The translations under genes were made by a program, and so were the position numbers. The notes under the pieces are model-generated. The model was given only the letters and a program-made list of their open reading frames with translations. It was not told the DNA's origin and searched no databases. DNA of 49,179 nt from Candidatus Microgenomates bacterium (GTDB lineage Bacteria; Patescibacteriota; Microgenomatia; UBA8517). Below, piece by piece: positions 13,184 to 31,066 of this stretch. Position 1 is the first letter of the stretch. Each line of letters starts with the position of its first letter. Location: NCBI GenBank assembly GCA_049523135.1, contig JBEKNE010000001.1:717234-766412 (forward strand), given 5' to 3'.

Positions 13184-13699
13184 ATGTTACAAAATTCGTT
13201 CGACTCCACCAAAATAAAATTTACACAGTATTTAACCAATCTTGGGATTTCAGAAAAATCACACAAGAATTACAGGTCCGATCTTTCTCACTTCACCGAA
13301 TGGTTAATCCTAAGACTCAGATCAGTTGGCTCCTACGTTGAATCTTTGAGCGAAACTATCCCCTTCCTCAGTACCAATATGGCCAAGGAATATAAAAGCT
13401 TTATGCTTCAAAATAAAATTCCAGCAAAAACAATAAACCGCAGGCTCTCAACCTTGAGGCACCTTTCTAGGTTTTTGGTTTCTTCTCAAACTCTTGATAC
13501 CGACTTCATGAATGACATCGAAAACATCTCTCTTGGCCACAGGCAGAAATCGTCAACGAGCCCGATTATTGAGGATTACCGAAGCTATTTAGAAGCCCAG
13601 AAGGTTTCAAAAAGCACTGTGAAAAATTATGTCAGCGACATCCGCCAATTCCTAGCCTGGGTTGAAACCAACGGTCAAATTATAAATTCAGATAACTAA
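13184..13699 (+). CDS. Protein of tandem tyrosine-recombinase core-binding (phage integrase N-terminal SAM-like) domains, no catalytic domain
   Basis: FTQYLTNLGISEKSHKNYRSDLSHF...TINRRLSTLRHLSRFL, then a second unit YRSYLEAQKVSKSTVKNYVSDIRQFLAW; ends at 171 aa. Confidence 0.8.
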   Translation: MLQNSFDSTKIKFTQYLTNLGISEKSHKNYRSDLSHFTEWLILRLRSVGSYVESLSETIPFLSTNMAKEYKSFMLQNKIPAKTINRRLSTLRHLSRFLVSSQTLDTDFMNDIENISLGHRQKSSTSPIIEDYRSYLEAQKVSKSTVKNYVSDIRQFLAWVETNGQIINSDN

Positions 13700-13704
13700 A
13701 ATTT

Positions 13705-16700
13705 ATGCCTTCCCTACCCAACATATCACCCGAATTAATCCAAGCTTATCAGGATCAGATATCAAAATCCTCTTCGAGCGCAACTGTAAAAAGAAAATCA
13801 ATTGCACTAAATAGGTTTTTTGACTGGGCAGAGGAAGCAGGACATATTCCTCAAAATCCTCTCCAGCAAGTTCAAAGCTTGCAACCGGAAATACAAAGAG
13901 TTTCTAAATCTAAAAGAAAAATTGAAGCCAGCAGCCGGACTTATGCAGTAATCGGACTTACCGTAGCTTTAATTATTTTGCTTTTTCTTCTCACTTGGAA
14001 GCTCAAATTCCCCATTTCTTTCATTCAGAATTTTGCCCAAGTAAATAACACTGGCGAGGTACAAAATGTTGCCCAAAATGTGAGCCCAATTCCCGCAACT
14101 CCTGCGGCAAACCTTGCCTGGAATCTTTACGCCAAGCTGAAATTAACGGATTCCAATGGGATTCCAGAAGTCGGCTCACAATCTTTAAGCTTTAATCTCT
14201 ATAATTCGGAAACCGGAGGTTCTCCCGTTTACACTTCAAGCACCCAGATAGTAACAACTGATACAAATGGATCTGCTTTGATATCGATAGATAATGTCCC
14301 GAGTGATCTTTTCTTCCAAAATAATACGCTTTATCTTGAACCAAACTTTAATAACCAAGGTACTTCAACAGCCAGAATTCCAATTTCTACAGCCAACACA
14401 GCTGCAAATCTGGAAGGCTATTTCCCCGCCAATCCTGAAACCGGAGCGAATTCGGAGGAAATTCCCGTAATCAACTCCGACGGATCACTTCTCTTGGCTA
14501 GTCAATCCCCAATGGTTAAGGCTACTCAGGGAAATCTCCAAATTGAAGGCCAGGCAGTTGTTATTAAAGCTTCCGACGGGTCAGGCGGCAATATCGTAAT
14601 TAATCCGGACGCGAACGGATATGCAAAATTCCTTTTTGAAGGCAACAAAGGTAATTTCTTAAATGCCACAGCAAACAATCTTACAAGTGGATCACTCTAT
14701 TACGGAGTGGTACAAAATAATGCAACCGGATATTACCTTATCAATCTCCAAAGCGGCTCCACTCCGACAACCAAATTTTCAGTTGATTCCGTCGGAAATA
14801 CAAACATTACAGGAGATCTTTCGACAGGTGGAACCGACAGGCTGACGGCTACAGGTTCACTACAAAATATAACAGGTTATTCGCAAACAAGCGGTAACCT
14901 AACGGTCAGCCAAAATGCTGGAGATTATGCCTCAATAACCAAGAATGACACTGCCCTGTCCGATGTAATGGATCTCACTTTAAATGAAAACAATATTGCA
15001 GGATCCCACTACTCCACTTTGGTACTTAACCGCTATGGAGGCGATGACAACTCAAGAGCGCTTCTTGTTAACTCTGGAAACGCTCAGTTTAATGGGCAGG
15101 TTCAGCTTGGAGGATATACTTCTCTTCCGACGGCAATCGGACAAGGCTCACTCGTATTTAATACCTCCGACAGTAAAGTTTATGTCTGGAACGGGACAAG
15201 TTGGGTGGCAGTCGGTTCCGGCGGTGGAGGCGGTCCAAGCTCGTTTGACCAAATAATCTCCGGCACAAATACTTCCGCGACAATGGTTGTAGGTAGTGGG
15301 GCTTCCTTAGGTTTTACGGGGACAGGAACTATTACGGCTTCAGGACTTTCCTGCTCGGGATGCGTCTCCAATAGCCAGCTGACCAACTCCAGCCTTACCA
15401 TTAACACCGGCGGGATTCTAACTGGCGGAGGATCTATAGCTCTCGGCGGGACTTTAAATCTAACCGCAACCGAAGCTGACACTTTAGACTCCGTGACCGG
15501 AAGAGGTGCAACAACAACTAATGCCATAAGTGTTGGGAATTTAACCTCATCGGGTACAACAACTTTTGGAGGTATAGCCTATACATGGCCTGGAAGTCAG
15601 GTTACAAGCGGTTTCCTACAAACAGACGGTAGCGGGGGTCTCTCCTGGACTACCAGTGTCCCGGTTTCATCCATGGCTTTTTCCGGGCTTACATCCGGCA
15701 CAAATACTTCTGCAGCAATGGTGGTTGGAAGTGGAGCAAGTTTAGATTACACAGGAAGCGGAACAATAAATGCCAGTTCCCTTGAAGGAAGTACCTGGGA
15801 ATCCCCCGGAACAATCGGCTTAACCACTCCCAATTCAGGAGCATTCACCATCCTTTCAGCTTCATCTTATGCTACCGTTTCAGGATCTCTCGCTCTCGGA
15901 ACTGCCAACGCCAGTGCAGGTCCGGGAAATCTGGACATGAGTGGAAACTTAGTAGCTGCGGGGAATATTACAGGAACAACTCTTAATGGAACTACGGGAA
16001 TTAATACCGGAGTTGGCGCCGGAACGGCGAGAATCGATTCGACTGGAAACTTAACAAACATCGACACAACTCAATTTAATACTCAAACTTACACATGGCC
16101 GGGAAGTCAGGTTGCAAGTGGGTTCTTGCAAACTGACGGAACTGGTGGTCTTTCCTGGATTACAAGTGTTGCCGCAACCTCAGTCCCCTTCTCAGGAATT
16201 ACGGATGGAACAAATATCTCTGCCTCCATGGTAGTTGGAAATGGAGCTTCACTTAGCTACACAGGAACAGGAACAATTGATGCTTCCTCACTTGAAGGAG
16301 CTACTTGGGAAGCACCCGGAATAATCGGTATTACCACTCCAGCTGGAGGCAACTTCACATCAATTGGGGCAACAACACAAGGAACGGGCGCATTCACTAC
16401 CCTTTCAGCTTCATCCTATGCCACCGTCTCAGGTTCACTTGCTTTGGGATCTTCCAACGCTAGTGCAGGTCCCGGAAACCTGGACATGAGTGGAAACTTA
16501 ACAGTTGGCGGAACTACAACTCTCGGAGGACAAACTTACACTTGGCCAGGAATCGGCGGGACAAATGGTCAGGCTTTGACTACTGACGGAAGTGGAAACC
16601 TTGCCTGGAATGATGTCCTAACCAGTGCCACTGTTTTTTGGACAGAGTTAAACGGATTAATCTATCCAAAAAACTCAAGCGAGGATGTAGCTATTGGTGG

Positions 16701-19700
16701 AAATTCAACCTCAAGTGCCAAGTTTGCATTTACGGGAGTTGACGGAGGCCTTCCAACCGCTTCAATTGCAGGAACTGTAGGCAGCAATGTCGCAACTTAT
16801 TTAACGGGTAATGGAAATCTGGCAACAACAAACATGGCCGACCTGACCCTTGGTGGAAGCTCAACTGGGAATGTAAATATAAACTCAAGAGGATCAAATG
16901 CTTTGATTGCAAACGGAGCCAACTTAACGGCTGGAGGAACCCTTACATTTCCAAATTCAAACACACTAACTGGTGTATCAAGCTATCTCGAACTATCTCA
17001 AGGTGTATCAGTTGGGGCCGGAACAAACTATTACTTCAGTAGCACCGGACTTCTAAATGCATCAAAACTTCAGGTATCAGGAATTGCGGATGTGGTCCAG
17101 GCCTACATAAAAGCCTATTCAACTCAAACAAATCATATTCAGGAATGGCAAAATTCCGGTGGCACTGCCCTTTCGTGGATAGACGGGCAAGGAAATCTAA
17201 GAGTTGGTTCGGGTGCAGTTGATAACGGAAGCCTTCTTGACGTTGCCGGAGCTCCGACAAGTGATGCACTGGCAATCTTTAATACTACCGGAGGTACACA
17301 AAACATCATAGCGGCATCCGCTTCCGGGGCAACAAAAATGACCTTAGACCAAAACGGAGTCTTGAGCCTTTATAATTCGACTTCTTCAATTACCAACACA
17401 GCAGGAGATATAACCATCGGCGCGGCATCAGGAAATATAAATTTCTCCGGAGATACTATTCAAAACATCAACACGGTAAATGCCGGTTCGGGAATATTCA
17501 GCAATGTATTGCAGGTCAATTCAACAGGCGCACTTCAGGCTTATTCAAGATTCGGTAACGGAACAAGCTCCCACGGACTGGTTAGCCCGCAGGATGTTTA
17601 CATAACCGGAAAATTGGATGTAGGCGGAGTTTTTTACCTTTCTTCGAATGAAATCGGAAACGGAACAAACGGAACACCTGCCATAATTCTGTCCTCCGCT
17701 CCTACTACAACTGCAAATACCCTAACAGCAGGTAACTGGCTCGTTGAAAACAATGCCAATTTAGGACAAGCGACACTAATGGTTAACCAAACAATGGGCG
17801 GAGATATTTTTACGGCTTCCGCCTCAGGAACCCCGAAGTTTGTAATAGCCAACAGTGGCAATGTTGGAATTGGAACGGTAAGCCCAACTGCACTTTTGGA
17901 TGTTTCTGCCAATAGCACCAATACTGCTTCCGACTATACCACTCTAAAACTGGAAGGATCACAATCTACTGCCAACACAGGAACATTCTACGGAGAAAAT
18001 ATCATACCAGCATTTACCGCATCATCAGGAAATACTCTGGCAAATCTTAAGGCTTTAGTCTCAAATCCCCAAGTAACAAGCACCGGAACAGTGACCAATG
18101 CTTATAACATCTACTCAAGATTGGACAATACTTCTACAGGAACAATCAGTAATTTATATGATCTATATCTTGCCGCCCCGGGAAACACTAGTGGAACAAT
18201 TACCCATAAATATGCCCTTGTTACAGAAGCGGGTGCCGGTAATGTTGGAATTGGGACAACTAGTCCGGGAGGAGCATTAGATGATGCAGGGGGAAGTCTT
18301 TTCCTTTCCAATGCCACATCCAACCTAATATCTTTTGGAAACTCAGGCGTAGCAGTCCCCGGTGCGGGAAGTGCTGGAGAAAAAATACAATTATTCGGAG
18401 CCACCAGAGGAACAGTTGCAACTGCCGACTATGCTTTAGGTGTACAAAGCTCTAACATGTGGTTCAACACCGATGGTGGTTACATGTTTTACAAAGATGC
18501 TGCCGCAACACCTGAAGTAATATTAGATACAAACGGCAATGTCGGCATTGGAACAACAAGCACGATCACCCCACTCACACTAGGTCAAAATCCATCCGAC
18601 CTGGGTGGTTTGTCGTTTCAGAACACAACTGGCCAAGCAAACTCTCGAAATTGGAATATTAGAGACGATGTTACAGCTTTTGGTGATCTTGCTATTAGAC
18701 AATCTACAACACAAAATGGTACAACTTTCGCCACTAGGTTGACTATAGATCCCAATGGCAATGTTGGAATTGGAGCAACAAGTCCTGCTGCCAATTTGAC
18801 AGTTGCCAAAAATTTTAATACTACCCCAACCGCTCTTACTCCTAGCGCAAGTGTTGCGGTTGATTGTTCATTGGCAAATGTGTTCACCCTGACTCCAGGC
18901 CAAGCCGAATCAATAACTGCATCTAATATGGTTGCTGGCCAGTATGTGGATTTGATTATTCTTACAAGTGGAACAAATTCATACACTCTTACATTTTCAA
19001 CTGGATTTAAAACTCCAAACACAACACTGGCAACAGGAACGGTGACAGGAAAGTATTTTGCAATCCATTATATTTCGAATGGCAGCTATCTGATTGAAAT
19101 TGGACGTACATCAACTCAGACTGCAGTCGGAGCTGATATTGCTGAATGGTATTCTTACGCAGGTGAAAAACCCCAGCCGGGTGAAATTGTTTCTATTTCG
19201 GCAGATAACACTCAAATTGAAAAAACCGATCAAGCGTATAGTCAACAAATATCCGGCGTTGTTTCCACTCAGCCGGCAATAACACTTGGTCAAGAACCAG
19301 ATCAGGGAATCGTTATGGCTTTAACCGGTCGGGTTCCGCTAAAAGTTTCCACTAAGAATGGACAAATTTTGACCGGTGACAGTATTACTTCTTCCACAAT
19401 TGCCGGAGTCGGAATGAAAGCCGTCAAGGCCGGACAAACTGTCGGAAAAGCTTTGGAATCAACCAATAATTGGACCACACAAAGCTGTCCTGCAGTCGCT
19501 TCTCTCGATCAAATTAACTGGCCGGATGATGACGGAACCAATCCTAACCATCCTTGTTTTACACTTTCGGATGGAACAATGATTGGAAAAATTATGGTCT
19601 TTGTTAACCCCTCTTGGTATGATCCGGAAGTTTACCTCACAGACACAGGCAATTTAAAAATTGCCCAGGTCAATGGAAATTACCAACTCACAAACACATC

Positions 19701-20937
19701 AAATAGCAATTCCGTAATTGATACAATCGGAGCTTTCGCTAATGTTGTCGCCGCCAATATCAAAGCCGGAGCAATCACAACAACCGACTTTATAGCTCAA
19801 AATATAACAGCTGGCGCTGTTACAACTCAAAGCTTGGCAACAAATTCATTTACCGCTTTTCAGGGAACTGTTGATAATCTTTTGGTTAAGTCCGGCCTGG
19901 TTGCCTTTAATATTCAGACACAACTTATCTCCCCTGTTCCGGGCCAAACAAATGTTGCAGTCCAAATTGGCTCAGAGGCAACCCCTTCGGGCCAATTTGT
20001 AATACAAAACGCAAGTGGAAGCGCAGTTGCCGCTATCGACAACCTTGGAAATGCCACAATCAGCGGACAACTAACAACAAACGGGGCTTCCGTTTCAGGT
20101 ACACTTTATGCCGATAACATTCAGTCCAAGAGTTTGGATGATATTCAGGCACTTTTGACTCAAGTTGAAACCGATCAAAATACTCTGAAAAACACTGTGA
20201 ATTGGAATAGCCTCACGGCAACAAATTCAGCAAATTTGGATAATTTGGCAGTTTCCGATCTTTATATTACAAACCAGGCAGCTATAAATTCTCTCTCCGT
20301 CACAACCAGCATCGCACTGGGCTCCGATTTGGTAATCGGTTCCGACAATACTATTAATACACTTTCCGCTCCTCTCAAGATCCAGTCCCTTGCCATGGCG
20401 CCTGTTGAAATAATGGACGGACTAGTAACAATAGATACAAAAGGAAACGTAAATATTGCAGGAGATTTGGCAGTTGCAGGGCGAGTTAAAGCCGCAGGGC
20501 TTGATATAACCGCCGCTCAGATGACCGATCCAAACGCCACCACATCCGCTAATTTACTGACCTTGCAGGACGCCAGCGGAAATACCGTTTCGTCAGTTAA
20601 TTCATCAGGAAGTGCCCAGTTTAATTCAATTACCACTCCCCAACTTATTGTTGCGGGATCCGCCGATGCAACGGTTGCAGGAACAATTGTAAATGGAGTA
20701 ATTACGACAAATTCAACAATCGGAACCGCCACTATTCCTGCAGGCACTGCCGATATTACAATCAAGAATCCAAAAATCAGCGACTACACTTTAGTTTATG
20801 TCACCCCGACTTCAGGAACGCAGAATAATGTACTATATGTAAAGGAAAAAGGCACAGGTTACTTCAAGGTTGGTTTTGACCAGGCTATAAACACAGACGT
20901 GAGTTTTAATTGGTGGATAGTACAAGTTTCACAATAA
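13705..20937 (+). CDS. Giant membrane-anchored fibre-like protein: N-terminal recombinase core-binding fragment, TM helix, tail-fibre-like repeats, peptidase G2-like chaperone domain
   Basis: LIQAYQDQI...SSATVKRKSIALNRFFDWAEEAG; TM YAVIGLTVALIILLFLLTW; GNVGIGT repeats; ADIAEWY...GEIVSI...GVVSTQP...ALTGRVPLKV; G/S/T/N-rich. Confidence 0.75.
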   Translation: MPSLPNISPELIQAYQDQISKSSSSATVKRKSIALNRFFDWAEEAGHIPQNPLQQVQSLQPEIQRVSKSKRKIEASSRTYAVIGLTVALIILLFLLTWKLKFPISFIQNFAQVNNTGEVQNVAQNVSPIPATPAANLAWNLYAKLKLTDSNGIPEVGSQSLSFNLYNSETGGSPVYTSSTQIVTTDTNGSALISIDNVPSDLFFQNNTLYLEPNFNNQGTSTARIPISTANTAANLEGYFPANPETGANSEEIPVINSDGSLLLASQSPMVKATQGNLQIEGQAVVIKASDGSGGNIVINPDANGYAKFLFEGNKGNFLNATANNLTSGSLYYGVVQNNATGYYLINLQSGSTPTTKFSVDSVGNTNITGDLSTGGTDRLTATGSLQNITGYSQTSGNLTVSQNAGDYASITKNDTALSDVMDLTLNENNIAGSHYSTLVLNRYGGDDNSRALLVNSGNAQFNGQVQLGGYTSLPTAIGQGSLVFNTSDSKVYVWNGTSWVAVGSGGGGGPSSFDQIISGTNTSATMVVGSGASLGFTGTGTITASGLSCSGCVSNSQLTNSSLTINTGGILTGGGSIALGGTLNLTATEADTLDSVTGRGATTTNAISVGNLTSSGTTTFGGIAYTWPGSQVTSGFLQTDGSGGLSWTTSVPVSSMAFSGLTSGTNTSAAMVVGSGASLDYTGSGTINASSLEGSTWESPGTIGLTTPNSGAFTILSASSYATVSGSLALGTANASAGPGNLDMSGNLVAAGNITGTTLNGTTGINTGVGAGTARIDSTGNLTNIDTTQFNTQTYTWPGSQVASGFLQTDGTGGLSWITSVAATSVPFSGITDGTNISASMVVGNGASLSYTGTGTIDASSLEGATWEAPGIIGITTPAGGNFTSIGATTQGTGAFTTLSASSYATVSGSLALGSSNASAGPGNLDMSGNLTVGGTTTLGGQTYTWPGIGGTNGQALTTDGSGNLAWNDVLTSATVFWTELNGLIYPKNSSEDVAIGGNSTSSAKFAFTGVDGGLPTASIAGTVGSNVATYLTGNGNLATTNMADLTLGGSSTGNVNINSRGSNALIANGANLTAGGTLTFPNSNTLTGVSSYLELSQGVSVGAGTNYYFSSTGLLNASKLQVSGIADVVQAYIKAYSTQTNHIQEWQNSGGTALSWIDGQGNLRVGSGAVDNGSLLDVAGAPTSDALAIFNTTGGTQNIIAASASGATKMTLDQNGVLSLYNSTSSITNTAGDITIGAASGNINFSGDTIQNINTVNAGSGIFSNVLQVNSTGALQAYSRFGNGTSSHGLVSPQDVYITGKLDVGGVFYLSSNEIGNGTNGTPAIILSSAPTTTANTLTAGNWLVENNANLGQATLMVNQTMGGDIFTASASGTPKFVIANSGNVGIGTVSPTALLDVSANSTNTASDYTTLKLEGSQSTANTGTFYGENIIPAFTASSGNTLANLKALVSNPQVTSTGTVTNAYNIYSRLDNTSTGTISNLYDLYLAAPGNTSGTITHKYALVTEAGAGNVGIGTTSPGGALDDAGGSLFLSNATSNLISFGNSGVAVPGAGSAGEKIQLFGATRGTVATADYALGVQSSNMWFNTDGGYMFYKDAAATPEVILDTNGNVGIGTTSTITPLTLGQNPSDLGGLSFQNTTGQANSRNWNIRDDVTAFGDLAIRQSTTQNGTTFATRLTIDPNGNVGIGATSPAANLTVAKNFNTTPTALTPSASVAVDCSLANVFTLTPGQAESITASNMVAGQYVDLIILTSGTNSYTLTFSTGFKTPNTTLATGTVTGKYFAIHYISNGSYLIEIGRTSTQTAVGADIAEWYSYAGEKPQPGEIVSISADNTQIEKTDQAYSQQISGVVSTQPAITLGQEPDQGIVMALTGRVPLKVSTKNGQILTGDSITSSTIAGVGMKAVKAGQTVGKALESTNNWTTQSCPAVASLDQINWPDDDGTNPNHPCFTLSDGTMIGKIMVFVNPSWYDPEVYLTDTGNLKIAQVNGNYQLTNTSNSNSVIDTIGAFANVVAANIKAGAITTTDFIAQNITAGAVTTQSLATNSFTAFQGTVDNLLVKSGLVAFNIQTQLISPVPGQTNVAVQIGSEATPSGQFVIQNASGSAVAAIDNLGNATISGQLTTNGASVSGTLYADNIQSKSLDDIQALLTQVETDQNTLKNTVNWNSLTATNSANLDNLAVSDLYITNQAAINSLSVTTSIALGSDLVIGSDNTINTLSAPLKIQSLAMAPVEIMDGLVTIDTKGNVNIAGDLAVAGRVKAAGLDITAAQMTDPNATTSANLLTLQDASGNTVSSVNSSGSAQFNSITTPQLIVAGSADATVAGTIVNGVITTNSTIGTATIPAGTADITIKNPKISDYTLVYVTPTSGTQNNVLYVKEKGTGYFKVGFDQAINTDVSFNWWIVQVSQ
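15255..16620 (+). repeat. Internal tandem modules (~150-180 aa) in the giant protein
   Basis: GTN(T/I)SA.MVVG.GASL at ~15260, ~15695, ~16205; YTWPG at ~15580, ~16090, ~16537; SAGPGNLDMSGNL at ~15915 and ~16465. Confidence 0.85.
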
Positions 20938-20938
20938 G

Positions 20939-23900: not shown

Positions 23901-25072
23901 ATTATTGGGAATCATCAGCAATAGACCCAGCAGGAAGCAATACTTGGGGCAGTTATCAGGCCTCACCCTACTCTTTTACTACAAGCCAGATACCAAATAT
24001 TCCCTCTCTCGATTCACCCGCAAACGGAGCAACCCTGACTTCTACTCCAATTATTCTCAAAACCACAGGAACTGACAATGACAATGATTATTTAATGTAC
24101 AAAATTAGGATTTGCACAGATCAAGCAATGAGTTCCTGCTTGACGGGTTCTCCATTCGATGAAACATCATCTCAAACAGGATGGAGTAATCAAAATGCCA
24201 ACGGCGGTACTGCATATACTTCCAATTCCCCCGATCAACAGGCATGGTACACCCTTCCGTCAAGTGTTCTGTCCCAATTGCAACCCGGCACTATCTACTA
24301 TTGGGATTCATATGCGGAGGATCCGAAAGAATATATCAGTAGTATCTGGACGGCAGGAACCGGTTTATGGGGCAGTACCCAGACCATACCCTATTCATTT
24401 ACCATGGGGCAACCTAATGTTCCATCTGCCCTGCAAGTTGATGGAACTACGGACCCAACTTCCTTAACTGATCAGACTCCCAATTTTACGGCAATCTGCA
24501 ACTCGGGCAACTCCGGTGATACTTTCAATAAATATGAAATTATTGTATCTACCAGTCCAACTTTTAGCTCAACTACCTATGATTCCGGTTCCTCAGGAAC
24601 TTCAATGGCAAGCTGTACCGCAGGTTCAAGATCCTCAAACCTTGCCTATGTTGGAACTCTTGGCCTTGACGGAACAGTATATTATTGGAAAATCAGATTT
24701 TTTGACACGGGAGGATCCGGTACGTGGTCAAACTGGTCAACTGAACTAGCTACTTTTAAAATGTCATCTTCATATGACAACACCCCGTTAACTTGTTCCG
24801 CCGGAACTCTAGGGGCACAAGACTCATCAATTATGGTTCAATGGACCGACTCCGCCGGCGTAACCGCCTTTGAACTCCAAAGAAGTACGGATGGTGGAAA
24901 CACTTTTTCTGATCTTGCCGGTTATTCCGGAAGCGGAACCAACTATACTGATTCGACCACTTCTTCCGGTAATATTTATGAATATAGAGTTAAGGCTACT
25001 TCCGGAGGGGGTTCCGGTTGGTGTACAACAGGACTTGTCAGTTTACAAAGAGGTGTGTTTCAATTCAGATGA
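20939..25072 (+). CDS. Large surface protein A: signal anchor, WapA/RHS-type N-terminal domain, Gly-rich insert, CBM-like domain, FnIII/Ig-like repeats
   Basis: TM at N-terminus; WLADPKRKYPIVID; GGGG-rich block; KYITFWVY...FYFDDI; three ...GTTYYW...AIDP repeats; C-terminal FnIII-like unit. Confidence 0.75.
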   Translation: MLKKFDKQTVFLILGVIILFITGGLFIVYKHLSSTSQPINNTKYIFLDNPTTYKGVLGLSFPINTTIVKSGDIYQNTTNRFKTYFKSSPTLENSITFKNDTSQISFYTPVSQSFGQLQNPTPSVNRNVLTYPNIFPSLDLQYTISSSRLLEEFVVKDKETALKILDINQSVSLTNVDKYTKEPDGSITFYSKGNPTFIIPQPVLYEQENRDIISHGIEYQVTETGKNNLQITKKITQEGADWLADPKRKYPIVIDLVIDNCTNDANTTWISSDTTHTTLSNSSSIYHSPSTGSIQVAVVGSIGTGADGNCIMNNGTKTLDSTVGSSVCNSSSRTTAYAVNFSVTTTASAGATSVTVSSTPNGLLAGDEFLIINLQGTSGNYSSVGQYETHTISSISTNTLNFTDTPLLNTYDGTTQKIMVQRVPNFGNVTICGGNTGGGCTAAATLTTSAWNGTKNGVLFFTSNGTINVNSGGVITANALGYQGGTGKGQVNGIGPQGYSRLPGGSISQSANDGGGGGGQDSSLGAGGSGGGGYGTAGSTGGVGGSGSGPGTGGSAYGSDFPSRLYLGSGAGGAADTGGNGGGIIAVYAVTFTSTGSATSNGGGGHSESNWSGSGGGSGGSISISASSVTAGTITVSGGSGGSGYKGSNGGNGGSGRSTTSPTLPALNDTVTLTEDSTVDLSGVKYITFWVYSGTTGSFAQFQFGQSSSSENTDPFTINVANQWQEVTWDISGLAPTRSAIKYFAFKITSNPNQLTFYFDDIESNTIPVAPTLGPPSNNTQHLLPSSQTLSMNSTDADGDYLMYKVLICTTSDMTTSCLAGSPFDETSSQTGWSNQNYPTGGPYTAYTSGTTAVFTPTLSPGTTYYWEAWAIDPGGTDLWSTVSAKYSFTTNAVPNIPSTPVSPNGVTGQALLPTFTTTTSDPDGDSIKYRIKLCTDNSMGVTGTCYTADQTTTPTGWSNGSSPYSSGTSGVYTLQASLVTLNAGTTYYWESSAIDPAGSNTWGSYQASPYSFTTSQIPNIPSLDSPANGATLTSTPIILKTTGTDNDNDYLMYKIRICTDQAMSSCLTGSPFDETSSQTGWSNQNANGGTAYTSNSPDQQAWYTLPSSVLSQLQPGTIYYWDSYAEDPKEYISSIWTAGTGLWGSTQTIPYSFTMGQPNVPSALQVDGTTDPTSLTDQTPNFTAICNSGNSGDTFNKYEIIVSTSPTFSSTTYDSGSSGTSMASCTAGSRSSNLAYVGTLGLDGTVYYWKIRFFDTGGSGTWSNWSTELATFKMSSSYDNTPLTCSAGTLGAQDSSIMVQWTDSAGVTAFELQRSTDGGNTFSDLAGYSGSGTNYTDSTTSSGNIYEYRVKATSGGGSGWCTTGLVSLQRGVFQFR

Positions 25073-28000
25073 AAAACAAATTTATATATATTGTCGGTTT
25101 GATTGCTATTTCGGCAGTGGTGGTGTTTTTAGGTTTTTTTGCCATTAAAAAGATTATTTCTTCCACTCCTTCAAATTCCGGCAAATATATCTTTTTGGAC
25201 AACCCAACTACTTATAAAGGGGTTTTAGGTCTCTCATTCCCTATTAACACAACTATTGTTAAAAGCGGTGACACATATCAAAATACCACTAACCGTTTTA
25301 AAACTTATTTTAAAAGCGACCCAACCATTAAAGATGGTATTACTTTCAAAAATGACACTTCTCAAATTTCTTTTTACACTCCGGTTAATCAGAGTTTTGG
25401 ACAACTGCAAAGTACAACTCCTCATACCAAAGGCAGTACTATTACTTATTCAAACATTTTTTCTTCACTTGATCTTAGGTACACCGTTTCGCCCACAAGG
25501 CTTCTTGAGGAATTCGTAGTTAATGACAGGCAGACTGCCGAAAAAATTCTTTCCTTAAATCAGGAAGTAACCCTAACTAATGTAGATAATTATGTACAGC
25601 AAGCCGGAAGTATAAACTTTTTCAAAAACGGCAAAATAACCTTTTCTCTCCCCCAACCGGTTCTTTACGAGCAGGAAAACAGGGATATCCGTTCAAATGG
25701 AATTGAATATCAAATTACGGGAAAAGATAAAAATAATCTTGAGGTTACTAAAAAAATTACTCAAGAAGGTGCTGACTGGCTCGCCGACCCGACCCGCCAA
25801 TATCCTATTGTTATAGATCTTGTAATTGACAATGCAGATACTGCAAGTAACTGGGTAAGCTCAGACCCAAGCGGTCTTACGGTTTCCCAGGAAAATTCCA
25901 TCATACACGAAGGCACAGGTTCGGTTAAACTGACAGCCGGAGGTATTAGTACCGGAACGGGAGCTGATGGAAATATTACTGTTGATTCCAGTCACAGCAC
26001 GCCACCAACTTATACTATTAATGCATACAATTATATTACAGGCCGTTCGTGTGCAGACGGCGGTGACGCGGTCAATTATTCCGTTACAGCACTAACTTCA
26101 ACCTCTGCAACAGTTACCGGAGGCGGTGGGACTAATGGAGGACCGGCAACAGGCTGTCTTGCCACAGGAGATGAAATTCTACTCATTAATCTTCAAGGTA
26201 CTTCGACTGCATATACGAACGTGGGCAATTATGAAACGTTAAGAGTATCTTCTATTACTTCCGGAAACATAATCAATTTTACAACCGCAAAAACAAATTA
26301 CTATGGTAACGGAGCAACGGATGATACAAACATTGGCACCAGTTCAAGTAATCAAAGAGTCATGCTCCAAAGAGTCCCAAATTACAACAACGTTACAGTT
26401 AATACGGGGGTCATTTTTTATCCTACTGCATGGAATGGCACAAAAGGAGGTGTCATGGCCTTCAGAGCCAGCGGTACTGTTACTGTTACTGGAACGATAA
26501 GTGCAACAGGTTATGGATATAGAGGTGGTACAGCACCTGCAAGTCATGGTGGACCAGCAGGAGAATCTTTCTGTGGAAACCCGGGAGGAGGGAATGGTGG
26601 TTCTTACGGAGGACCATATGAAGGTGGAAATGGCACATGCGGTGGAGGTGGGGGTGAGTCGACAGGTGGAAACGGCACAATTGCAACAGGTTCAGCGACA
26701 GGAGGGGCGGGAGGTGGAGGCGGAGATGGAGCAGGAAGCACTTATGCCGGAGGAGGAGCAGGAGGCGGCGGAGGATATGGATCCCCCGGAGTACACGGAA
26801 ATGGCGGTAACGTAGTAGCTACTGATGGTTCAACCAACCACAGCGGAAATGGTGGTCTTGCTAGCAATGATGGTGGTGGTGGAGGTGGTGGTGGAAGCTT
26901 TGGATCCACAAATCTATCAACCCTATTTTTAGGTTCCGGAGCTGGTGCCGGGGCGGTTGGTGGCGGCAGCGCGGGCAGAGGAGGAAACGGTGGCGGAATT
27001 ATCCTCATTTTTGCCAATAATTTAAGCGTCACGACAGGTATAACTTCCAATGGAGGCAACGGTGGAAATGGAGGCGGTAGTAGCTCCGCCTTCTTTGGTG
27101 GAGCTGGTGGAGGAGGGTCGGGTGGGTCAATAAAAATTATTGGGAATACTCTTACTATTGGTTCAAGTAAAGTTTCTGCCACCGGCGGTTCAGGTGGAAC
27201 AACTGCAAGCAATAGTGGAGCCGGAGGTGCCGGTGGATCAGGAATTACCGCCATGTTTTATTCATCTCTCTCAGGAAGCACATCTTCACCTACCCCGGCA
27301 TACAATACTTATCCTTATGCCCTCAATGATACAGTCACTTTGACTAAGAGTGTAAATCTCTCCACAGTTAAATATATTACTTTTTGGGTTTACTCAAACC
27401 AAGCAAGTCAGGCAATGAGATTTGAGTTCGGGCAAAGTATAAATTCAGAGCAAACTTATGATTTTACTACCGGTTCGGCAGGTGCATGGCATCAAGTGCA
27501 ATGGGATATTTCGGGTATTAGTACTGGATCCAGAAGTGCTGTCCAATATTTTGCTTTCAAAGTTACAAATATCAGTAATGCCACCACCGTGATTTATTTT
27601 GATGATATTGAGGATAATTCCCCCCCCAATGCTCCCAGTATTGGCCCGCCAGGTAATGCTGCTACCGATCAAATTCTGTCGCCAACATTTACCACAAGTA
27701 CTACGGATGTTGATGGAGATACTGTAAAATATGAGATTGCGATTTGTGCCAACTCCGACATGGTAACCGGCTGTATATCGGGGTCTCCGTTTAGCCAAAC
27801 CTTGTCCCCCACTGGTTGGAGTAATGGCAGTACGCCTTACGCTTCCGGAGCGACAGCAACTTATATACTACAAACAACTCTTAATCCCGGAACTACTTAT
27901 TACTGGCGGTCACAGGCAATTGATCCGGGAGGAAGCGGTATATATGGTGCCTGGAGTTCTACCTATTCTTTCACCACCAGTTATGTACCGGGTGCTCCCA

Positions 28001-29046
28001 CTCTTAATTATCCGAGTAATGGAGCTAATGGTTGGCCACAAGCGCCTGCCGTTTCAATGCATGCAACTGACGCGGACAGTGATTACTTAAGATACCAAGT
28101 TGCAATTTGTACAACATCCGACATGTCAACCTCTTGTATTTCGGGTTCTCCTTTTACGGAGCCCTCAGGTTCACCCCAAACCGGTTGGACCGGGCAGGAT
28201 GCACAGAGTAGTACCGCATATGCTTCCACTCCCAGTTCGGGAACACCATTTGTTTTTTCCCCCACTCTTGCGGCAGGGACCACATACTACTGGCAGGCAA
28301 GGGCAATTGATCCGGGCGGAAGCAATACTTATGGTTCCTGGAGTTCAACTTATACTTTCACCATGGGACAAATAAATGTCCCCTATTCTTTGCAGGTTGA
28401 CGGATCCGTGAATCCACCCGCACTTACTGATCAGACTCCGAACTTTACGGCAATTTGTAGTTCCGCCAATTCCGGCGATACTTTTAATCAATATCAGATC
28501 CAAGTTTCCACTAACCCAAGTTTCAGTTCAACTGTTTACGATTCCGGAGGTGGAGGAACTTCCATGGCCAGTTGTACTGCAGGTTCAAGATCTTCAAACC
28601 TTGCCTATGTTGGCACTCTTGCTCTTGATGGAACAACTTATTATTGGAGGGTAAAACTTTATGATTCAACCTCGGCATCTTGGTCGGGTTGGTCAACCGA
28701 ATTTGCCACCTTTAAAATGAATTCCGCTTATAACGGAACCCCCACCAGCTGCAGACTTATGCAGGCCGCCGATGGAAGTTCCCTTACCCTACTTTGGACT
28801 GATATGACCTCCAATGAAACCGGGTTTGAAATCCAGAAAAATGTAGGTAACACAACTTTTTCACCTCTCATAACAACAGCGGCCAATGTTACAAGTTACT
28901 CCGACCCGACAGCTACGAGTACTACCTACCAATATAGAGTCAGGGCGGATTTTGCTTCCGGAAGCCCGACCGATTGGTGCACAACAACAATAACCAATTT
29001 AACAAAGGGGACATTGCAAATGCAGGGAGTAATCTTAAGTAATTAG
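25069..29046 (+). CDS. Large surface protein B, paralogue of protein A
   Basis: Same architecture; start moved to ATG 25069 (ATGA overlap with stop of A); 44/45 identical residues in the N-terminal block. Confidence 0.78.
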   Translation: MKNKFIYIVGLIAISAVVVFLGFFAIKKIISSTPSNSGKYIFLDNPTTYKGVLGLSFPINTTIVKSGDTYQNTTNRFKTYFKSDPTIKDGITFKNDTSQISFYTPVNQSFGQLQSTTPHTKGSTITYSNIFSSLDLRYTVSPTRLLEEFVVNDRQTAEKILSLNQEVTLTNVDNYVQQAGSINFFKNGKITFSLPQPVLYEQENRDIRSNGIEYQITGKDKNNLEVTKKITQEGADWLADPTRQYPIVIDLVIDNADTASNWVSSDPSGLTVSQENSIIHEGTGSVKLTAGGISTGTGADGNITVDSSHSTPPTYTINAYNYITGRSCADGGDAVNYSVTALTSTSATVTGGGGTNGGPATGCLATGDEILLINLQGTSTAYTNVGNYETLRVSSITSGNIINFTTAKTNYYGNGATDDTNIGTSSSNQRVMLQRVPNYNNVTVNTGVIFYPTAWNGTKGGVMAFRASGTVTVTGTISATGYGYRGGTAPASHGGPAGESFCGNPGGGNGGSYGGPYEGGNGTCGGGGGESTGGNGTIATGSATGGAGGGGGDGAGSTYAGGGAGGGGGYGSPGVHGNGGNVVATDGSTNHSGNGGLASNDGGGGGGGGSFGSTNLSTLFLGSGAGAGAVGGGSAGRGGNGGGIILIFANNLSVTTGITSNGGNGGNGGGSSSAFFGGAGGGGSGGSIKIIGNTLTIGSSKVSATGGSGGTTASNSGAGGAGGSGITAMFYSSLSGSTSSPTPAYNTYPYALNDTVTLTKSVNLSTVKYITFWVYSNQASQAMRFEFGQSINSEQTYDFTTGSAGAWHQVQWDISGISTGSRSAVQYFAFKVTNISNATTVIYFDDIEDNSPPNAPSIGPPGNAATDQILSPTFTTSTTDVDGDTVKYEIAICANSDMVTGCISGSPFSQTLSPTGWSNGSTPYASGATATYILQTTLNPGTTYYWRSQAIDPGGSGIYGAWSSTYSFTTSYVPGAPTLNYPSNGANGWPQAPAVSMHATDADSDYLRYQVAICTTSDMSTSCISGSPFTEPSGSPQTGWTGQDAQSSTAYASTPSSGTPFVFSPTLAAGTTYYWQARAIDPGGSNTYGSWSSTYTFTMGQINVPYSLQVDGSVNPPALTDQTPNFTAICSSANSGDTFNQYQIQVSTNPSFSSTVYDSGGGGTSMASCTAGSRSSNLAYVGTLALDGTTYYWRVKLYDSTSASWSGWSTEFATFKMNSAYNGTPTSCRLMQAADGSSLTLLWTDMTSNETGFEIQKNVGNTTFSPLITTAANVTSYSDPTATSTTYQYRVRADFASGSPTDWCTTTITNLTKGTLQMQGVILSN

Positions 29047-29137
29047 ACAGTAATATATCAAAATACATACTTTTATATAATTTGTTTCAAAGGAGGCTTG
29101 ACAACGCTCAAAAAAAGCTAAATACTAATTAAATACC

Positions 29138-31066
29138 ATGCAGATAGCTAACCTGTTCCAAAAAATCGAAAAATACTTACTGTTTATAGGAGTATCTTTA
29201 TTTGCCGTTTTCGTTTTTCCCCGATTCCCGTCGCCATACATCGTACCAAAAGAAATTTTTGCTGCAGTCATCATTTCACTTGTCTTAATTCTCTGTTCGG
29301 TCAGGTCAATTATCAAAGGCGAATCCCCTCTTTTCATCGGAAAATTTGATTTGGGAGTAGCACTCTTCGCTTTGGTTTATATCTTAGCCGCGGCTTTTAT
29401 GACTCCCAACAAAATGGAGGCCTTCTTCTACCCCGGAACCGTAACTTTTGTAATCATTTCGGTCCTCTTTTATTTCCTAATTAATCAGCTGGATAAAAAA
29501 GGAAAAGATTTAATACTTATCGGGATTTTTGCCTCCGGAATTTTTCTTTCCATCTCAATTCTTTTTACGGAACTTGGACTTTTTGCAAAAATTCCGTTTC
29601 TCCCTTCTTTTATTAAAGATTCCGGTTTCAATGCTCTTGGCAACTGGCTCCCGTCCGTAATTTACCTAACCGCCTTACTTCCCATTGGAATTGGTTTAAT
29701 TATTAAGGATAAAGACATTGTCAAAAGAATATTTTACGGAGTCGCTTCCACAGTAATTGTGTTTGGTCTTGTGGTTGCTGTGGTTACAATCCTACCCGGA
29801 AAGGCACAATCTCCCATTCTCCCGGATATACAAACTTCGTGGGAGGTTGCCGTAGAAACTCTAAAGGTTAGCCCGATCTTGGGAATAGGAACCGGGAACT
29901 ATCTAACAGCCTTTAATCTTTACAGATCGGTTTCTTACAATATGACAAATCTCTGGCAAATAAGATTTTCATCCTCCGATAACTTCTATTTCACTTTGCT
30001 TACCGAAGCCGGATTTGCAGGACTTGCCGCGCTGATCATACTAATGATTGAAATTTACAACAAATTCAAAACCGATCTTACAAAGAAATATTGGGAAGAA
30101 ATCTCGGTAATCGTAATTTTCGTTTTATTCCTCGTTTTTCCGTCCGCTTCGGCACTTCTCTTCCTCCTGATGGTTCTTTTGGCTATCTTTTCAGGATCGG
30201 AGGAAAAGAAGATAAATATTGCCATGAGTAGAATTCCTTCCGCAATTGTCACAATTCCCGTTTTTCTCGGTATAATTGCCCTCGGATTTTTCGGAACTAA
30301 AGCAGTAGCCGCCGAGATAACCTACGAAAGGTCCCTTGTTGCCCTAACCAATAATGACGCAAAAGGAACTTATACTCTAATGACACAGGCTGTTACCCAA
30401 AATCCTTATGTTGACAGGTATCACGCTTCCCTTGCTCAAGTTGATATGGCTCTTGCCACCTCAATTGCCAGTAACCAAAATCTCACTGATACCGACCGCT
30501 CAACAATTACCCAACTTATTCAGCAAGCCATAAATGAAGGCAAGGCAAACGTAACCCTTAACCCGGAAAGATCCGGAAACTGGGAATCTTTGGGGCAAAT
30601 TTATCGAAGCATAATGTCTTTTGCACAGGGTGCCGACCAATTCACAATTCAAGCCTTTATCCAAGCCATTGCTCTTGACCCGACAAATCCTAACCTCAGA
30701 ATTGAACTTGGCGGAGCCTACTATGCCCTCGGAAGATATAGCGATGCAATCGATTCTTTCAAATTGGCAACTCTTGCTAAAAGCGATCTTGCCAATGCTT
30801 ATTACAACCTTGCAATTGCTTATCGCGAAAATAAGGATTATGACAATGCGATAACGGCAATGAATACAGTATTAACTCTGGTTGATAAAAACTCTTCCGA
30901 TTACACTCTGGCCAAAAGCACACTGGACAATTTGCAAAAGAATAAGCCGGTTACAACAACCAGTAGCACTCAGGGAAATCTGACAACTCCCGAAAAGCAA
31001 ACAACAACAGTCAAACCTCCTCTTACACTACCTTCCGAGGCAACTCCTCCAGCCACAAATCAATAA
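29138..31066 (+). CDS. O-antigen ligase/O-oligosaccharyltransferase-like multi-TM protein with C-terminal TPRs
   Basis: ~12 TM segments; PILGIGTGNY...NFYFTLLTEAGFAGL Wzy_C-like signature; TPR-like repeats (AIALDPTNPNLRIELGGAYYALGRY). Confidence 0.82.
   Translation: MQIANLFQKIEKYLLFIGVSLFAVFVFPRFPSPYIVPKEIFAAVIISLVLILCSVRSIIKGESPLFIGKFDLGVALFALVYILAAAFMTPNKMEAFFYPGTVTFVIISVLFYFLINQLDKKGKDLILIGIFASGIFLSISILFTELGLFAKIPFLPSFIKDSGFNALGNWLPSVIYLTALLPIGIGLIIKDKDIVKRIFYGVASTVIVFGLVVAVVTILPGKAQSPILPDIQTSWEVAVETLKVSPILGIGTGNYLTAFNLYRSVSYNMTNLWQIRFSSSDNFYFTLLTEAGFAGLAALIILMIEIYNKFKTDLTKKYWEEISVIVIFVLFLVFPSASALLFLLMVLLAIFSGSEEKKINIAMSRIPSAIVTIPVFLGIIALGFFGTKAVAAEITYERSLVALTNNDAKGTYTLMTQAVTQNPYVDRYHASLAQVDMALATSIASNQNLTDTDRSTITQLIQQAINEGKANVTLNPERSGNWESLGQIYRSIMSFAQGADQFTIQAFIQAIALDPTNPNLRIELGGAYYALGRYSDAIDSFKLATLAKSDLANAYYNLAIAYRENKDYDNAITAMNTVLTLVDKNSSDYTLAKSTLDNLQKNKPVTTTSSTQGNLTTPEKQTTTVKPPLTLPSEATPPATNQ

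Follow-up and report, generated by a model that had tools for sequence, protein, structure and literature searches.

A conserved giant surface fibre of Microgenomates with non-catalytic, recombinase-type core-binding domains

Gene layout and a core-binding domain divided between two genes

[quoted passage not shown] The Microgenomates are a large, uncultured part of this radiation. ORF calling places five genes on the forward strand between 13184 and 31066: g1 (13184-13699, 171 aa), g2 (13705-20937, 2410 aa), g3 (20939-25072, 1377 aa), g4 (25069-29046, 1325 aa counted from its ATG, which was adopted in place of the TTG at 25018 used by the mechanical ORF list) and g5 (29138-31066, 642 aa). Spacings read directly from the sequence are 5 nt between g1 and g2, 1 nt between g2 and g3, an ATGA overlap of g3 and g4, and 91 nt between g4 and g5, and these match the co-oriented arrangement described earlier. 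Housekeeping genes flank the locus (LeuRS, tRNA-Ala, an M23 peptidase, and Rho). Fragments of ComEC/ComEA lie upstream of LeuRS, outside the conserved unit.

The product of g1 is a soluble, basic protein of 171 aa (predicted pI 9.4) that begins with a complete core-binding (CB) domain at residues 12-100 (nt 13217-13483, + strand; pI 10.0), recognised by both Pfam and NCBIfam models. This domain scores 57.2 bits against Phage_int_SAM_1 (PF02899; cut-off 22.3, E 2e-15) and aligns with positions 2-96 of the XerC model TIGR02224 (E 5e-13). A second SAM-like stretch, at residues 129-161, covers only profile positions 2-34 of 85; together with NCBIfam and the family alignment it marks helices 1-2 of a second CB domain at residues ~127-163 (nt 13562-13672, + strand). 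Helices 3-4 of the same domain were located by orthologue alignment and profile matches at residues 3-58 of g2 (nt 13711-13878, + strand). Alone, residues 3-45 of g2 match profile positions 39-82 of 83 weakly (13-15 bits), and the g2 N-terminus (residues 1-75, pI 9.6) has as the protein's sole PHROGs match the phrog_1 integrase (E 3e-5). When the g1 C-terminus and g2 N-terminus are concatenated, Phage_int_SAM_1 is covered over positions 1-82 of 83 with 43 bits (E 6e-11). The earlier note had read g1 as tandem CB domains and the start of g2 as a CB fragment: one domain of g1 is indeed complete, the second is only a first half, and the g2 fragment is its other half. The profile search that the note had suggested as a check identifies the N-termini as genuine tyrosine-recombinase core-binding (SAM-like) domains, with PF02899 above its cut-off.

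The g1 family alignment contains the invariant motifs K-N-Y-x-S-D and N-R-R-L-S-T-L-R-H, and across lineages both domains keep the canonical CB motifs, T-x-K-N-Y-x-S-D..F..W and N-R-R-L-S-x-L-R, without variation. In sister lineages g1 and g2 form one ORF in the order CB-CB-TM-giant ectodomain, and the fused orthologues L028, L050, and P0208 carry two complete SAM-like domains followed by a transmembrane (TM) helix. At the level of sequence, the break between the two genes is thereby shown to fall within CB domain 2 in Woesebacteria, and in this window too. Among 32 split loci the gaps are mostly 0-15 nt and all three relative reading frames occur, while g2 orthologues keep a Met-Pro start (MPxLPxISPE...ATxKRKxxSLxxFFDWA). 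An identical 171-aa g1 protein was found on 16 independent contigs, and since hundreds of independent assemblies contain the 171-aa form, the assembly error contemplated in the earlier note can be set aside. We also rejected a fusion of g1 and g2 by frameshift or readthrough, given a g2-frame stop at 13693-13695, two codons ahead of the g1 stop, the occurrence of orthologues in all three relative frames, and the conserved Met-Pro start of g2. A single-sequence AlphaFold2 model of g1 joined to g2 residues 1-70 reached a pLDDT of 55, with helices as expected and an unreliable tertiary fold, and the only Foldseek matches to this model were designed helical repeats and FPPS, all at E>0.7. A PDB search with the g1 profile gave weak matches to the N-terminal domains of integrases and XerA (E 0.018-0.15).

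The catalytic half of a tyrosine recombinase is missing, as had been reported from first inspection for the R-H-R-H-Y residues. PF00589 was found in none of g1-g5, 10 mid-length relatives, the fused orthologues, and the other window ORFs tested, and CB domain 2 leads directly into a K/R linker and TM helix with no R-K-H-R-H/W-Y active site. Because the catalytic domain is absent, the protein cannot be a recombinase, and sequence comparison shows the two CB domains to be related, without catalytic function, to the N-terminal core-binding domain of Xer proteins and integrases. XerC/XerD and phage integrases (PF02899/PF13495) share the SAM-like four-helix domain and its canonical motifs; unlike them, the proteins described here lack PF00589, carry the CB domain in tandem ahead of a TM helix and giant ectodomain, and in Woesebacteria divide the second CB domain over two polypeptides.

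The giant fibre and its neighbouring genes

Downstream of the CB fragment, g2 has a K/R-rich linker, a hydrophobic TM span at residues ~80-98 (nt 13942-13998, + strand), and an acidic ectodomain (pI 4.2) rich in T/G/S/N, which bears out its earlier description as a CB fragment, a TM helix, and a fibre of ~2300 aa. The product of the locus is a giant, conserved surface fibre of Microgenomates, built of CB1, CB2, a K/R linker, one TM helix, a beta-rich stalk of variable length, a barrel, and a C-terminal knob. Because a signal peptide is absent and KSKRK precedes the TM helix, g2 is predicted to be a single-pass, N-in protein with a cytoplasmic CB module and ~2300 residues directed outward.

The AlphaFold2 model of the distal region is confident for the barrel and knob only, and a Foldseek search of this region against BFVD gave 121 matches at E<=1e-3, preneck appendage barrel proteins among them. 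The barrel (residues ~1809-1975, 19129..19629, + strand; pLDDT 85-97) is of the phage pre-neck appendage or capsid-decoration type (BFVD, TMt 0.6, E 1e-9), with PDB matches to 8pkh, 8hdt, and 5wk1, and tblastn boundaries of orthologues begin at residues 1801-1811. The knob (residues ~2329-2405, 20689..20919, + strand; pLDDT >90) shows the strongest conservation within the ectodomain, with near-invariant columns in ...TPTSxTxNxVLYVKxK..F.VGF......FNWW[IV]. Its Foldseek matches are the C-terminal domain of the cyanophage Pam1 tailspike (rmsd 2.3 Å over 74 aa) and further C-terminal domains from the R2 pyocin fibre, the Sf6 tailspike, and K1 lyase. Fused Collier-type giants also carry the knob, and a minimal member of 462 aa (P0244) retains it together with CB-CB-TM; the knob may nucleate folding or form the fibre tip.

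Phage tail fibres, tailspikes, phi29 gp12, and R-type pyocin fibres therefore resemble g2 at the fold level in the barrel and knob, and are likewise elongated, repeat-rich, and probably trimeric, whereas the N-terminus of g2 anchors it in the cell membrane, and no other phage genes accompany it. The fibre itself is probably trimeric and tail fibre-like. Sequence homology to phage fibres was undetectable in Pfam, PHROGs, and IMG/VR: Pfam searches with g2 in four pieces at E<=10 returned the CB fragment only and no PF13884 (Peptidase_S74), which was found in 7 of 86 homologues of the g2 C-terminal region, and a PDB sequence search with g2 gave no match. The earlier statement that phage structural genes are lacking accordingly stands for a phage gene set, but needs amending for the distal 600 aa of g2, which are phage-fibre-like in fold.

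Giant surface proteins have reportedly been proposed for host attachment in CPR bacteria, for example in Vampirococcus lugosii, and Ebh of S. aureus is a giant fibrillar adhesin. Like them, the present fibre is very large, repeat-rich, and membrane-anchored, has a stalk of varying length, and belongs to a probable episymbiont; we know of no giant adhesin of these kinds with a recombinase-derived cytoplasmic domain. The fibre is probably exposed at the surface and may serve in attachment. The stalk and the g3/g4 cassettes would differ among species, as is usual for attachment structures.

The proteins g3 and g4 share 53% identity over their first ~520 aa, in line with the earlier reading of paralogous surface giants, and each combines a hydrophobic anchor at the N-terminus with an AgmC_N-like Gly-rich region and with Ig_Rha78A_N/FN3-like domains. 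A PDB sequence search with g3 gave FN3 matches only. Both are predicted to be variable beta-helix/FN3 surface proteins. In the sister species examined, their central module occurs inside the g2 orthologue; loci L007, L008, L062, and L063 have the module of g3 within the giant CB-anchored ORF. In the locus, g3 is a variable accessory.

The last gene, g5, has its own promoter-like site at 29098-29126 and encodes a polytopic, Wzy_C-like (O-antigen-ligase-type) membrane protein that ends in TPR repeats (E 1e-11), labelled O-ligase/TPR in the earlier note. The Wzy_C model (PF04932) gives 23.4 bits, below the Pfam cut-off of 31.7; Wzy_C was detected in eight of nine g5 orthologues at E<=0.01 (best 9.2e-10). 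Like WaaL, PglL, and PilO, g5 and its orthologues are polytopic membrane proteins with a Wzy_C or Wzy_C-like region, and g5 differs in its added TPR array and the sub-threshold score. CPR bacteria are not known to have an outer membrane or LPS. In five loci (L012, L013, L027, L028, and L034) g5 directly follows g2. Its product would most likely glycosylate or help to assemble the Ser/Thr/Asn-rich surface material, and may take part in protein or cell-wall glycan transfer.

The prepilin N_methyl motif was absent from g1-g5 in Pfam searches. In the two Collier-type loci checked (L050 and L063), a prepilin-like protein is encoded just past the giant gene. The CPR 'Pam' pilus described in a preprint is a different system from the CB-TM-fibre locus.

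Distribution of the family and its conserved upstream region

The g1 family comprises 853 representative clusters at E<=1e-10 and 262 close homologues of ~170 aa, so the g1/g2 arrangement is far beyond chance. The CB-fibre family was found only in Microgenomates-type CPR genomes, and the pairing of CB module and giant fibre occurs at 77 loci across Microgenomates. Whereas the earlier note had envisaged a conserved five-gene system, g1 and g2 are the only universal pair of the five, and g3-g5 are not universal. The coupling of the CB module to the fibre that it had also proposed is demonstrated physically, since the two are one polypeptide in many lineages. The locus keeps its synteny (LeuRS ... 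M23/SIMPL), a position shared across candidate phyla. Identity of g1 between species is 55-66%, compared with 42-68% for LeuRS in the same species, a level of conservation comparable to that of this aminoacyl-tRNA synthetase. Public annotation labels the family 'XerD/integrase', literature searches returned no description of a CB-TM-fibre protein, and the CB-CB-TM-fibre architecture appears to be undescribed.

Amesbacteria have a short protein consisting of a single CB domain, a Pro-rich linker, and a C-terminal TM helix, without a fibre and without the upstream motif described below, and a g5 homologue follows it. It follows that the CB-TM unit has a function for which no fibre is needed.

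Upstream of g1, a putative control region (12671..13183) is alignable across 13 Woesebacteria loci although the g1 proteins there are only 45-66% identical. Its elements are retained in L012, where the neighbouring upstream gene is not LeuRS, which suggests that the region travels with g1. It contains inverted copies of a TGCGGAAA-type motif, namely TTCCCCGCA (12892-12900), TTTCCCCGCA (12930-12939), TGCGTAAT (13027-13034), and TGCGGAAATTATACTA (13040-13055), as well as CTGTGAAA (13062-13069) and, on the - strand, a hairpin followed by a T-run (12754-12737) at which a divergent transcript of ~300 nt may end. A promoter-like core follows on the + strand (13107..13172; promoter scan 11/12), with GGCTA-TTGACA (13112-13117), a 17-nt spacer, and AATAAT (13135-13140), and three tandem 9-nt units, TAGTCTAAT / CAGTATAAT / TCGTATAAT (13140-13166, + strand), then CTAGCC. 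As a regular expression, the triple unit has exactly one match per locus in 23 loci, and its first base lies 30-55 nt 5' of the g1 start in 22 of them. An Rfam search of the upstream region at E<=10 gave noise only, and RNAalifold found little consensus structure (-5.9 kcal/mol, 11 pairs, mostly invariant); we therefore rejected a structured RNA and regarded this stretch as a collection of short DNA motifs.

In the Woesebacteria discovery set, TGCGG[ATG]AA[AT] occurs 66 times upstream of the CB gene against 1.0 expected, in 28 of 28 loci. Out of sample it recurs upstream of the fused gene, with 25 occurrences against 1.0 expected in Collier-type loci (17 of 21 loci), 7 against 0.4 in Roizman-type loci, 4 against 0.2 in L070-74, and 2 against 0.1 in Beckwith loci. 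Across the whole window TGCGGDAA is not enriched (6 observed against 4.9 expected). The TGCGGAAA-type array, recurring upstream in five lineages, is a candidate operator; the motif could also be the site of another regulator or part of the divergent transcript. The inverted copies lie ~90-150 nt apart, an arrangement unlike dif, and a repeat scan limited to the intergenic region found nothing att-like.

A membrane-tethered core-binding module and its possible roles

We hypothesize that g1 docks on the cytoplasmic tail of g2 and rebuilds the four-helix CB2 domain, such that the complex would be equivalent to the single-chain protein of sister lineages. The CB module would be a membrane-tethered unit that binds double-stranded DNA and leaves it uncut; its basic pI, its canonical CB motifs, and the conserved candidate operator array all point to DNA binding. 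In the preferred form of this model, the module would be a regulator of ToxR-like topology acting on the TGCGGAAA-type array upstream of its own operon, and g1, where the gene is split, would be a subunit able to dock and possibly to be released. A split-CB fibre whose CB module is a tethered DNA binder or regulator of its own operon is, in our assessment, the best explanation of the locus, and one that we hold tentatively.

Recombinase-derived domains can repress promoters: YopR of SPbeta and the N-terminal part of P4 integrase are likewise recombinase-type modules acting as non-catalytic, promoter-binding regulators, though they are soluble phage proteins, YopR with a whole recombinase fold, whereas the module described here is CB only, membrane-anchored, and chromosomal (PMC8612738). 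ToxR, CadC, and TcpP share the predicted topology of a cytoplasmic N-terminal domain of DNA-binding type, a single TM helix, and an extracytoplasmic domain. Their fold is an OmpR-type winged helix rather than CB/SAM-like, and their outer domain is a small sensor rather than a 2300-aa fibre. Because SAM-like domains are all that Pfam detects in the cytoplasmic part, with no Trans_reg_C (OmpR-type winged helix), the likeness to ToxR is one of topology only.

The same module might instead have lost DNA binding and serve as a cytoplasmic protein-protein adaptor that clusters or oligomerises the tails, or docks a cytoskeletal or division protein or a g5-type protein. Precedent exists in RodZ, whose cytoplasmic HTH binds MreB and not DNA, and CB domains also form protein contacts in recombinase synapses; the split CB2 shows helices serving as a protein-protein interface, and the short CB-TM protein of Amesbacteria adjoins a g5 homologue where no fibre is present. 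We nevertheless consider an adaptor somewhat unlikely, as the basic pI is retained, the canonical motifs are invariant in both domains across lineages, and the upstream array in five lineages would be left unexplained. Alternatively, the module could bind DNA structurally and anchor a chromosomal region or incoming DNA beneath the fibre, comparable to membrane-DNA tethers of the Noc and RacA types and close to the tethering and transfer roles imagined in the earlier note, whose overall interpretation is partly supported. This reading shares all the DNA-binding arguments of the best explanation; tandem CB domains in a probably trimeric fibre could give multivalent DNA contacts, and CPR bacteria depend on the uptake of DNA and nucleotides. 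It is quite improbable in our estimate, because the only conserved candidate sites sit upstream of the gene itself, where autoregulation fits better, and the locus lacks conserved partition, competence, or transfer genes.

One could also see in the locus the remnant of a prophage or tailocin, or a xerD gene that has decayed or been mis-assembled, in which case the arrangement as such would have no function. The phage-like folds of the distal fibre, the Peptidase_S74 matches in some homologues, and the 'XerD/integrase' label of g1 speak for this. However, a search of 2.9 million viral contigs (IMG/VR) yielded no relatives of either g1 or the g2 C-terminus, the flanks are housekeeping genes in a position that is syntenic across candidate phyla, and conservation is like that of an aminoacyl-tRNA synthetase. 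The same split is found in independent assemblies, fused CB-TM-fibre ORFs exist, and the catalytic domain is absent from all relatives tested. The prophage/tailocin reading is effectively refuted, and the chance that any such remnant accounts for the locus is very small.

Returning to the tethered DNA-binding regulator that we prefer, a further elaboration, unlikely as a whole, would be a surface-to-DNA device made from a domesticated recombinase module, in which the CB foot binds the TGCGGAAA-type array and perhaps further sites, and contact, tension, or cleavage at the fibre is relayed directly to transcription or nucleoid position. In Woesebacteria, g1 would dock on the fibre tail by domain complementation and be releasable to act on DNA, as a natural split-domain switch.

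For the Microgenomates, these results add a class-wide conserved fibre of defined anatomy, in which foot and knob are constant and the stalk varies; it could be among the appendages observed at the surface of these cells. Hundreds of 'XerD/integrase' entries are not recombinases and inflate the counts of mobile elements in CPR genomes. The split CB2 is a rare natural case of a small domain divided over two genes and kept in many species, useful for the study of domain complementation and gene fission. More generally, the CB-anchored fibre could link the cell surface to DNA physically or in a regulatory manner; should the CB module bind DNA, this would be the first case of a surface fibre connected directly to DNA via a recombinase-derived domain.

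A core-binding domain divided between two genes

The core-binding (CB) domain of Xer/integrase tyrosine recombinases is found here in one complete and one divided copy. The complete copy occupies residues 12-100 of g1 (13184-13699, + strand, 171 aa), which match Phage_int_SAM_1 at 57 bits (cut-off 22.3), and the XerC and XerD models align to g1 over their first ~96 positions (E 5e-13 and 1e-11). A second SAM-like stretch (g1 residues 129-161) accounts for no more than the first two profile helices, and the N-terminus of g2 (13705-20937, + strand, 2410 aa) for no more than the last two (residues 3-45). Because the end of g1 and the start of g2, once concatenated, match profile positions 1-82 of 83 in one piece (43 bits, E 6e-11), we conclude that one CB domain is divided between the two genes. 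The earlier note had described tandem core-binding domains in g1 and a core-binding fragment in g2; profile matching supports the domain assignment of both N-termini, leaves g1 with one complete copy and the first two helices of another, and identifies the g2 fragment as the missing half. The structure model obtained for the CB module was of low confidence (pLDDT 55).

The split form recurs in 32 related loci, with gaps mostly of 0-15 nt, all three relative reading frames and a conserved Met-Pro-x-Leu-Pro start of g2. We considered recoding at the junction and rejected it, since the g2 frame carries a stop two codons before the g1 stop; the same split in so many loci, in three relative frames and with a conserved g2 start, speaks against both recoding and error. 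Sixteen contigs, assembled independently and one of them a 306-kb JGI contig, encode an identical g1 protein, which disposes of the assembly error that the earlier note had named as a possible refutation. In two loci, g1 and the transmembrane-fibre gene are separated by a small unrelated ORF (L029:10479-10874 and L036:10494-11144), the first of which may resemble a four-helix-bundle "23S rRNA intervening sequence" type protein.

A single ORF combines the same parts in Collierbacteria-type and several other lineages, ordered as CB1-CB2, a K/R-rich linker, a transmembrane (TM) helix and a giant ectodomain, and this fused form also occurs among close relatives of the window protein (locus L028 and library protein P0208). 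Profiles for the CB and catalytic halves of recombinases revealed no catalytic domain in g1-g5, in any other window ORF tested or in the relatives examined, as had been anticipated from the sequence. The source annotations of these proteins as "site-specific recombinase XerD" or "site-specific integrase" are misleading for this family.

The fibre and its accessory genes

A KSKRK-rich sequence precedes the TM helix of g2, and no signal peptide was found in the protein. The pI is basic (9.4-10) for g1 and the g2 N-terminus and acidic (4.2) for the remaining ~2300 residues, in which Thr, Gly, Ser, Ala and Asn abound. Together these features predict a topology with the N-terminus inside and the fibre outside. 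The first ~600 and last ~600 residues are conserved among g2 orthologues, the middle being variable in content and length, and a complete member of only 462 aa (P0244, a hit in the representative library) keeps CB-CB-TM and the C-terminal knob with ~200 external residues, which shows that the stalk is almost entirely dispensable.

An AlphaFold2 model of g2 residues 1700-2410, built from a 51-sequence alignment, was confident for two domains. The modelled barrel (residues ~1809-1975) resembles phage "pre-neck appendage barrel" proteins (BFVD, TMt ~0.6, E 1e-9) as well as capsid decoration proteins (PDB 8pkh, 8hdt, 5wk1), and the modelled knob (residues ~2329-2405) resembles the C-terminal domain of the cyanophage Pam1 tailspike (rmsd 2.3 A over 74 residues) and, further, those of the R2 pyocin fibre, Sf6 tailspike and K1 lyase. 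The segment between them was poorly modelled, as would be expected if an intertwined trimer had been modelled as a monomer. Neither g1 nor the g2 C-terminus has sequence relatives in 2.9 million viral contigs; the phage likeness is thus confined to the level of fold, and a prophage is rejected for this locus. The earlier view that phage structural genes are missing here accordingly stands for sequence and needs amending for fold.

Downstream of g2 lie g3 (20939-25072, + strand, 1377 aa), g4 (25069-29046, + strand, 1325 aa) and g5 (29138-31066, + strand, 642 aa), and the successive spacings from g1 to g5 (5 nt, 1 nt, an ATGA overlap and 91 nt), like the gene lengths and common orientation over 13184-31066, are as first described. 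The proteins encoded by g3 and g4 are paralogues (53% identity over the first 520 residues) with N-terminal anchors, Gly-rich AgmC_N-like regions and Ig/FN3-like domains in common, and g5 encodes a polytopic protein with TPR repeats and a Wzy_C-like region that is detected in 8 of 9 orthologues (best E 9e-10). The five genes do not constitute one fixed cluster, as had been proposed: g5 directly follows g2 in L012, L013, L027, L028 and L034, and the central module of g3/g4 lies inside a giant CB-anchored ORF in L007, L008, L062 and L063, so that g3 and g4 are not a fixed part of the system.

Other lineages carry further variations. In Collierbacteria-type loci a membrane protein of ~210-220 aa is encoded right after the giant ORF, and both such proteins that were checked have a prepilin-type N-terminal methylation motif (L050:16251-16883 and L063:19097-19765; ORFs of similar size follow the giant gene in L051, L052, L060, L062 and L065), a hint that the fibre may be connected with type IV pilin-like proteins. 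Amesbacteria have no fibre; between LeuRS and a g5 (Wzy_C/TPR) homologue they encode a 237-277-aa protein in which a Pro-rich linker joins a single CB domain to a C-terminal TM helix (L078:9980-10780, L079:9980-10693 and L080:9980-10810).

Distribution, chromosomal setting and upstream control region

The closest named relatives are Woesebacteria and Microgenomates. A word-indexed search returned 262 homologues of g1, the 120 listed spanning 154-181 aa, and an exhaustive HMM search returned 1752 representative clusters at E<=1e-3, 853 at E<=1e-10 and 83 at E<=1e-30; most of the 150 top-scoring clusters measure 155-175 aa, with a few giants of 1157-2652 aa that represent the fused form. Scanning one genome per GTDB species yielded 77 loci, surveyed over 20 kb around each homologue. 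Where the record title is informative, the locus comes from Microgenomates-type CPR (Woese-, Collier-, Beckwith-, Roizman-, Levyi- and Amesbacteria); other GTDB records are often labelled generically or evidently wrongly. Many species-representative records with the locus (L011, L013, L014, L018 and others) are titled "uncultured Gammaproteobacteria" or "uncultured Pseudomonadales", labels that look wrong for these CPR-like bins.

Between species, g1 is about as conserved (55-66% identity) as LeuRS from the same genomes. In many lineages LeuRS lies upstream of the locus and an M23 peptidase or SIMPL gene downstream, which indicates vertical inheritance at a fixed chromosomal site. The pairing between CB domains and giant fibre is conserved across Microgenomates. 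The window itself has ordinary chromosomal genes upstream (ArgRS, LeuRS), and tRNA-Ala, an M23/LysM peptidase, SIMPL and GGDEF proteins, Rho, a sortase, RadA, ribosomal protein S1 and rRNA genes downstream.

Several neighbours merit a brief description. Genes for a PEGA-domain protein (83-1159) and a RelB-like antitoxin (1240-1620) lie beside tRNA-Arg and tRNA-Pro genes. Small ORFs resembling the "Competence" region of ComEC occur at 9009-10026, upstream of LeuRS (one being 9009-9362, 117 aa), adjoined in the contig gene calls by an HHH_3 (ComEA-like) ORF; the ComEC similarity looks fragmented and may represent a split gene or pseudogene. Residues 778-931 of the 1193-aa protein at 33882-37463 form a GGDEF diguanylate cyclase domain, whose long flanks have no Pfam match on either side. 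After a minus-strand sortase gene (39504-40244) comes a 382-aa ORF (40253-41401) with no Pfam match, which may encode a sortase substrate or pilin-like protein. The minus strand of 47583-49179 carries 5S rRNA (47583-47699) and part of the 23S rRNA (49043-49179, model positions 2512-2651). A group I intron (48741-49007) breaks up the 23S and adjoins a LAGLIDADG endonuclease ORF (48109-48624); Rfam reported nothing for the rest of the 23S 3' part in the window.

The 513 nt upstream of g1 (12671-13183) are conserved as DNA across Woesebacteria (also in L007-L036), where the proteins have diverged to ~50% identity, and in L012 the upstream gene differs, yet the conserved region still accompanies g1. 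Its elements include a near-consensus promoter (TTGACA-17-AATAAT), a set of three TATAAT-like 9-nt units in tandem that occurs once per locus, its first base 30-55 nt before the start codon in 22 of 23 loci, and a TGCGGAAA-type motif that is present several times, in either orientation. A TAGCAC...TGCCAA hairpin also lies within it, as does a minus-strand terminator-like hairpin (12754-12737) downstream of a minus-strand TAGTATAAT box, so that a divergent minus-strand transcript of ~300 nt is possible. Rfam gave no family match for the region, and RNAalifold no support for a structured RNA upstream of g1.

The motif was derived from Woesebacteria loci, where it occurs 66 times in the 400 nt upstream vs 1.0 expected (28/28 loci), and was then tested in other lineages, with the rest of each 20-kb locus as a shuffle-free background. 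It is still enriched there, at different positions and orientations: 25 vs 1.0 expected upstream of Collier-type fused genes (17/21 loci), 7 vs 0.4 in Roizman-type loci, 4 vs 0.2 in the L070-74 group and 2 vs 0.1 in Beckwith, the independent evidence being the recurrence across groups, as loci within a group are related. Upstream of the Amesbacteria short CB-TM gene there is none. The simplest reading of the array is as candidate protein-binding sites.

Possible roles of the core-binding module

To our knowledge, all characterised relatives use the CB domain to bind DNA. Here its canonical motifs and basic charge have been kept in both copies in all lineages, and a conserved candidate operator accompanies the gene. 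Moreover, YopR and the N-terminus of P4 integrase set a precedent for promoter-binding repressors derived from recombinases (PMC8612738). On these grounds we tentatively favour a membrane-tethered, non-catalytic DNA binder, whose likeliest role would be to regulate its own operon via the upstream array. The main rival, that the module now serves as a protein-protein adaptor, finds favour in the Amesbacteria short form, in which a CB domain and TM helix persist with no fibre, and we regard it as rather unlikely, if the nearest competitor. A structural DNA tether, which is a variant of the DNA-binding view and draws on the same evidence, seems less probable again. That the locus is a pseudogene, an artefact or a prophage is essentially excluded. 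We envisage that g1 would dock onto the g2 tail by rebuilding CB2, with the CB module in the cytoplasm and the fibre outside, where it may serve attachment, and g5 may modify or assemble surface material.

The CB-fibre protein belongs with tyrosine recombinases by domain family but is without their defining catalytic feature, and with ToxR-like regulators it shares the topology, though not the DNA-binding fold. Its g2 domains are similar in fold to phage fibre and appendage domains, whereas the sequence families and genomic context of the latter are absent. Full-text literature searches found no description of a CB-TM-fibre protein. Giant membrane-anchored surface fibres are already known in kind; the recombinase-derived foot and the naturally split domain on such a fibre are, as far as these searches go, undescribed. 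Only if coupling between surface and DNA were demonstrated would the system be categorically new.
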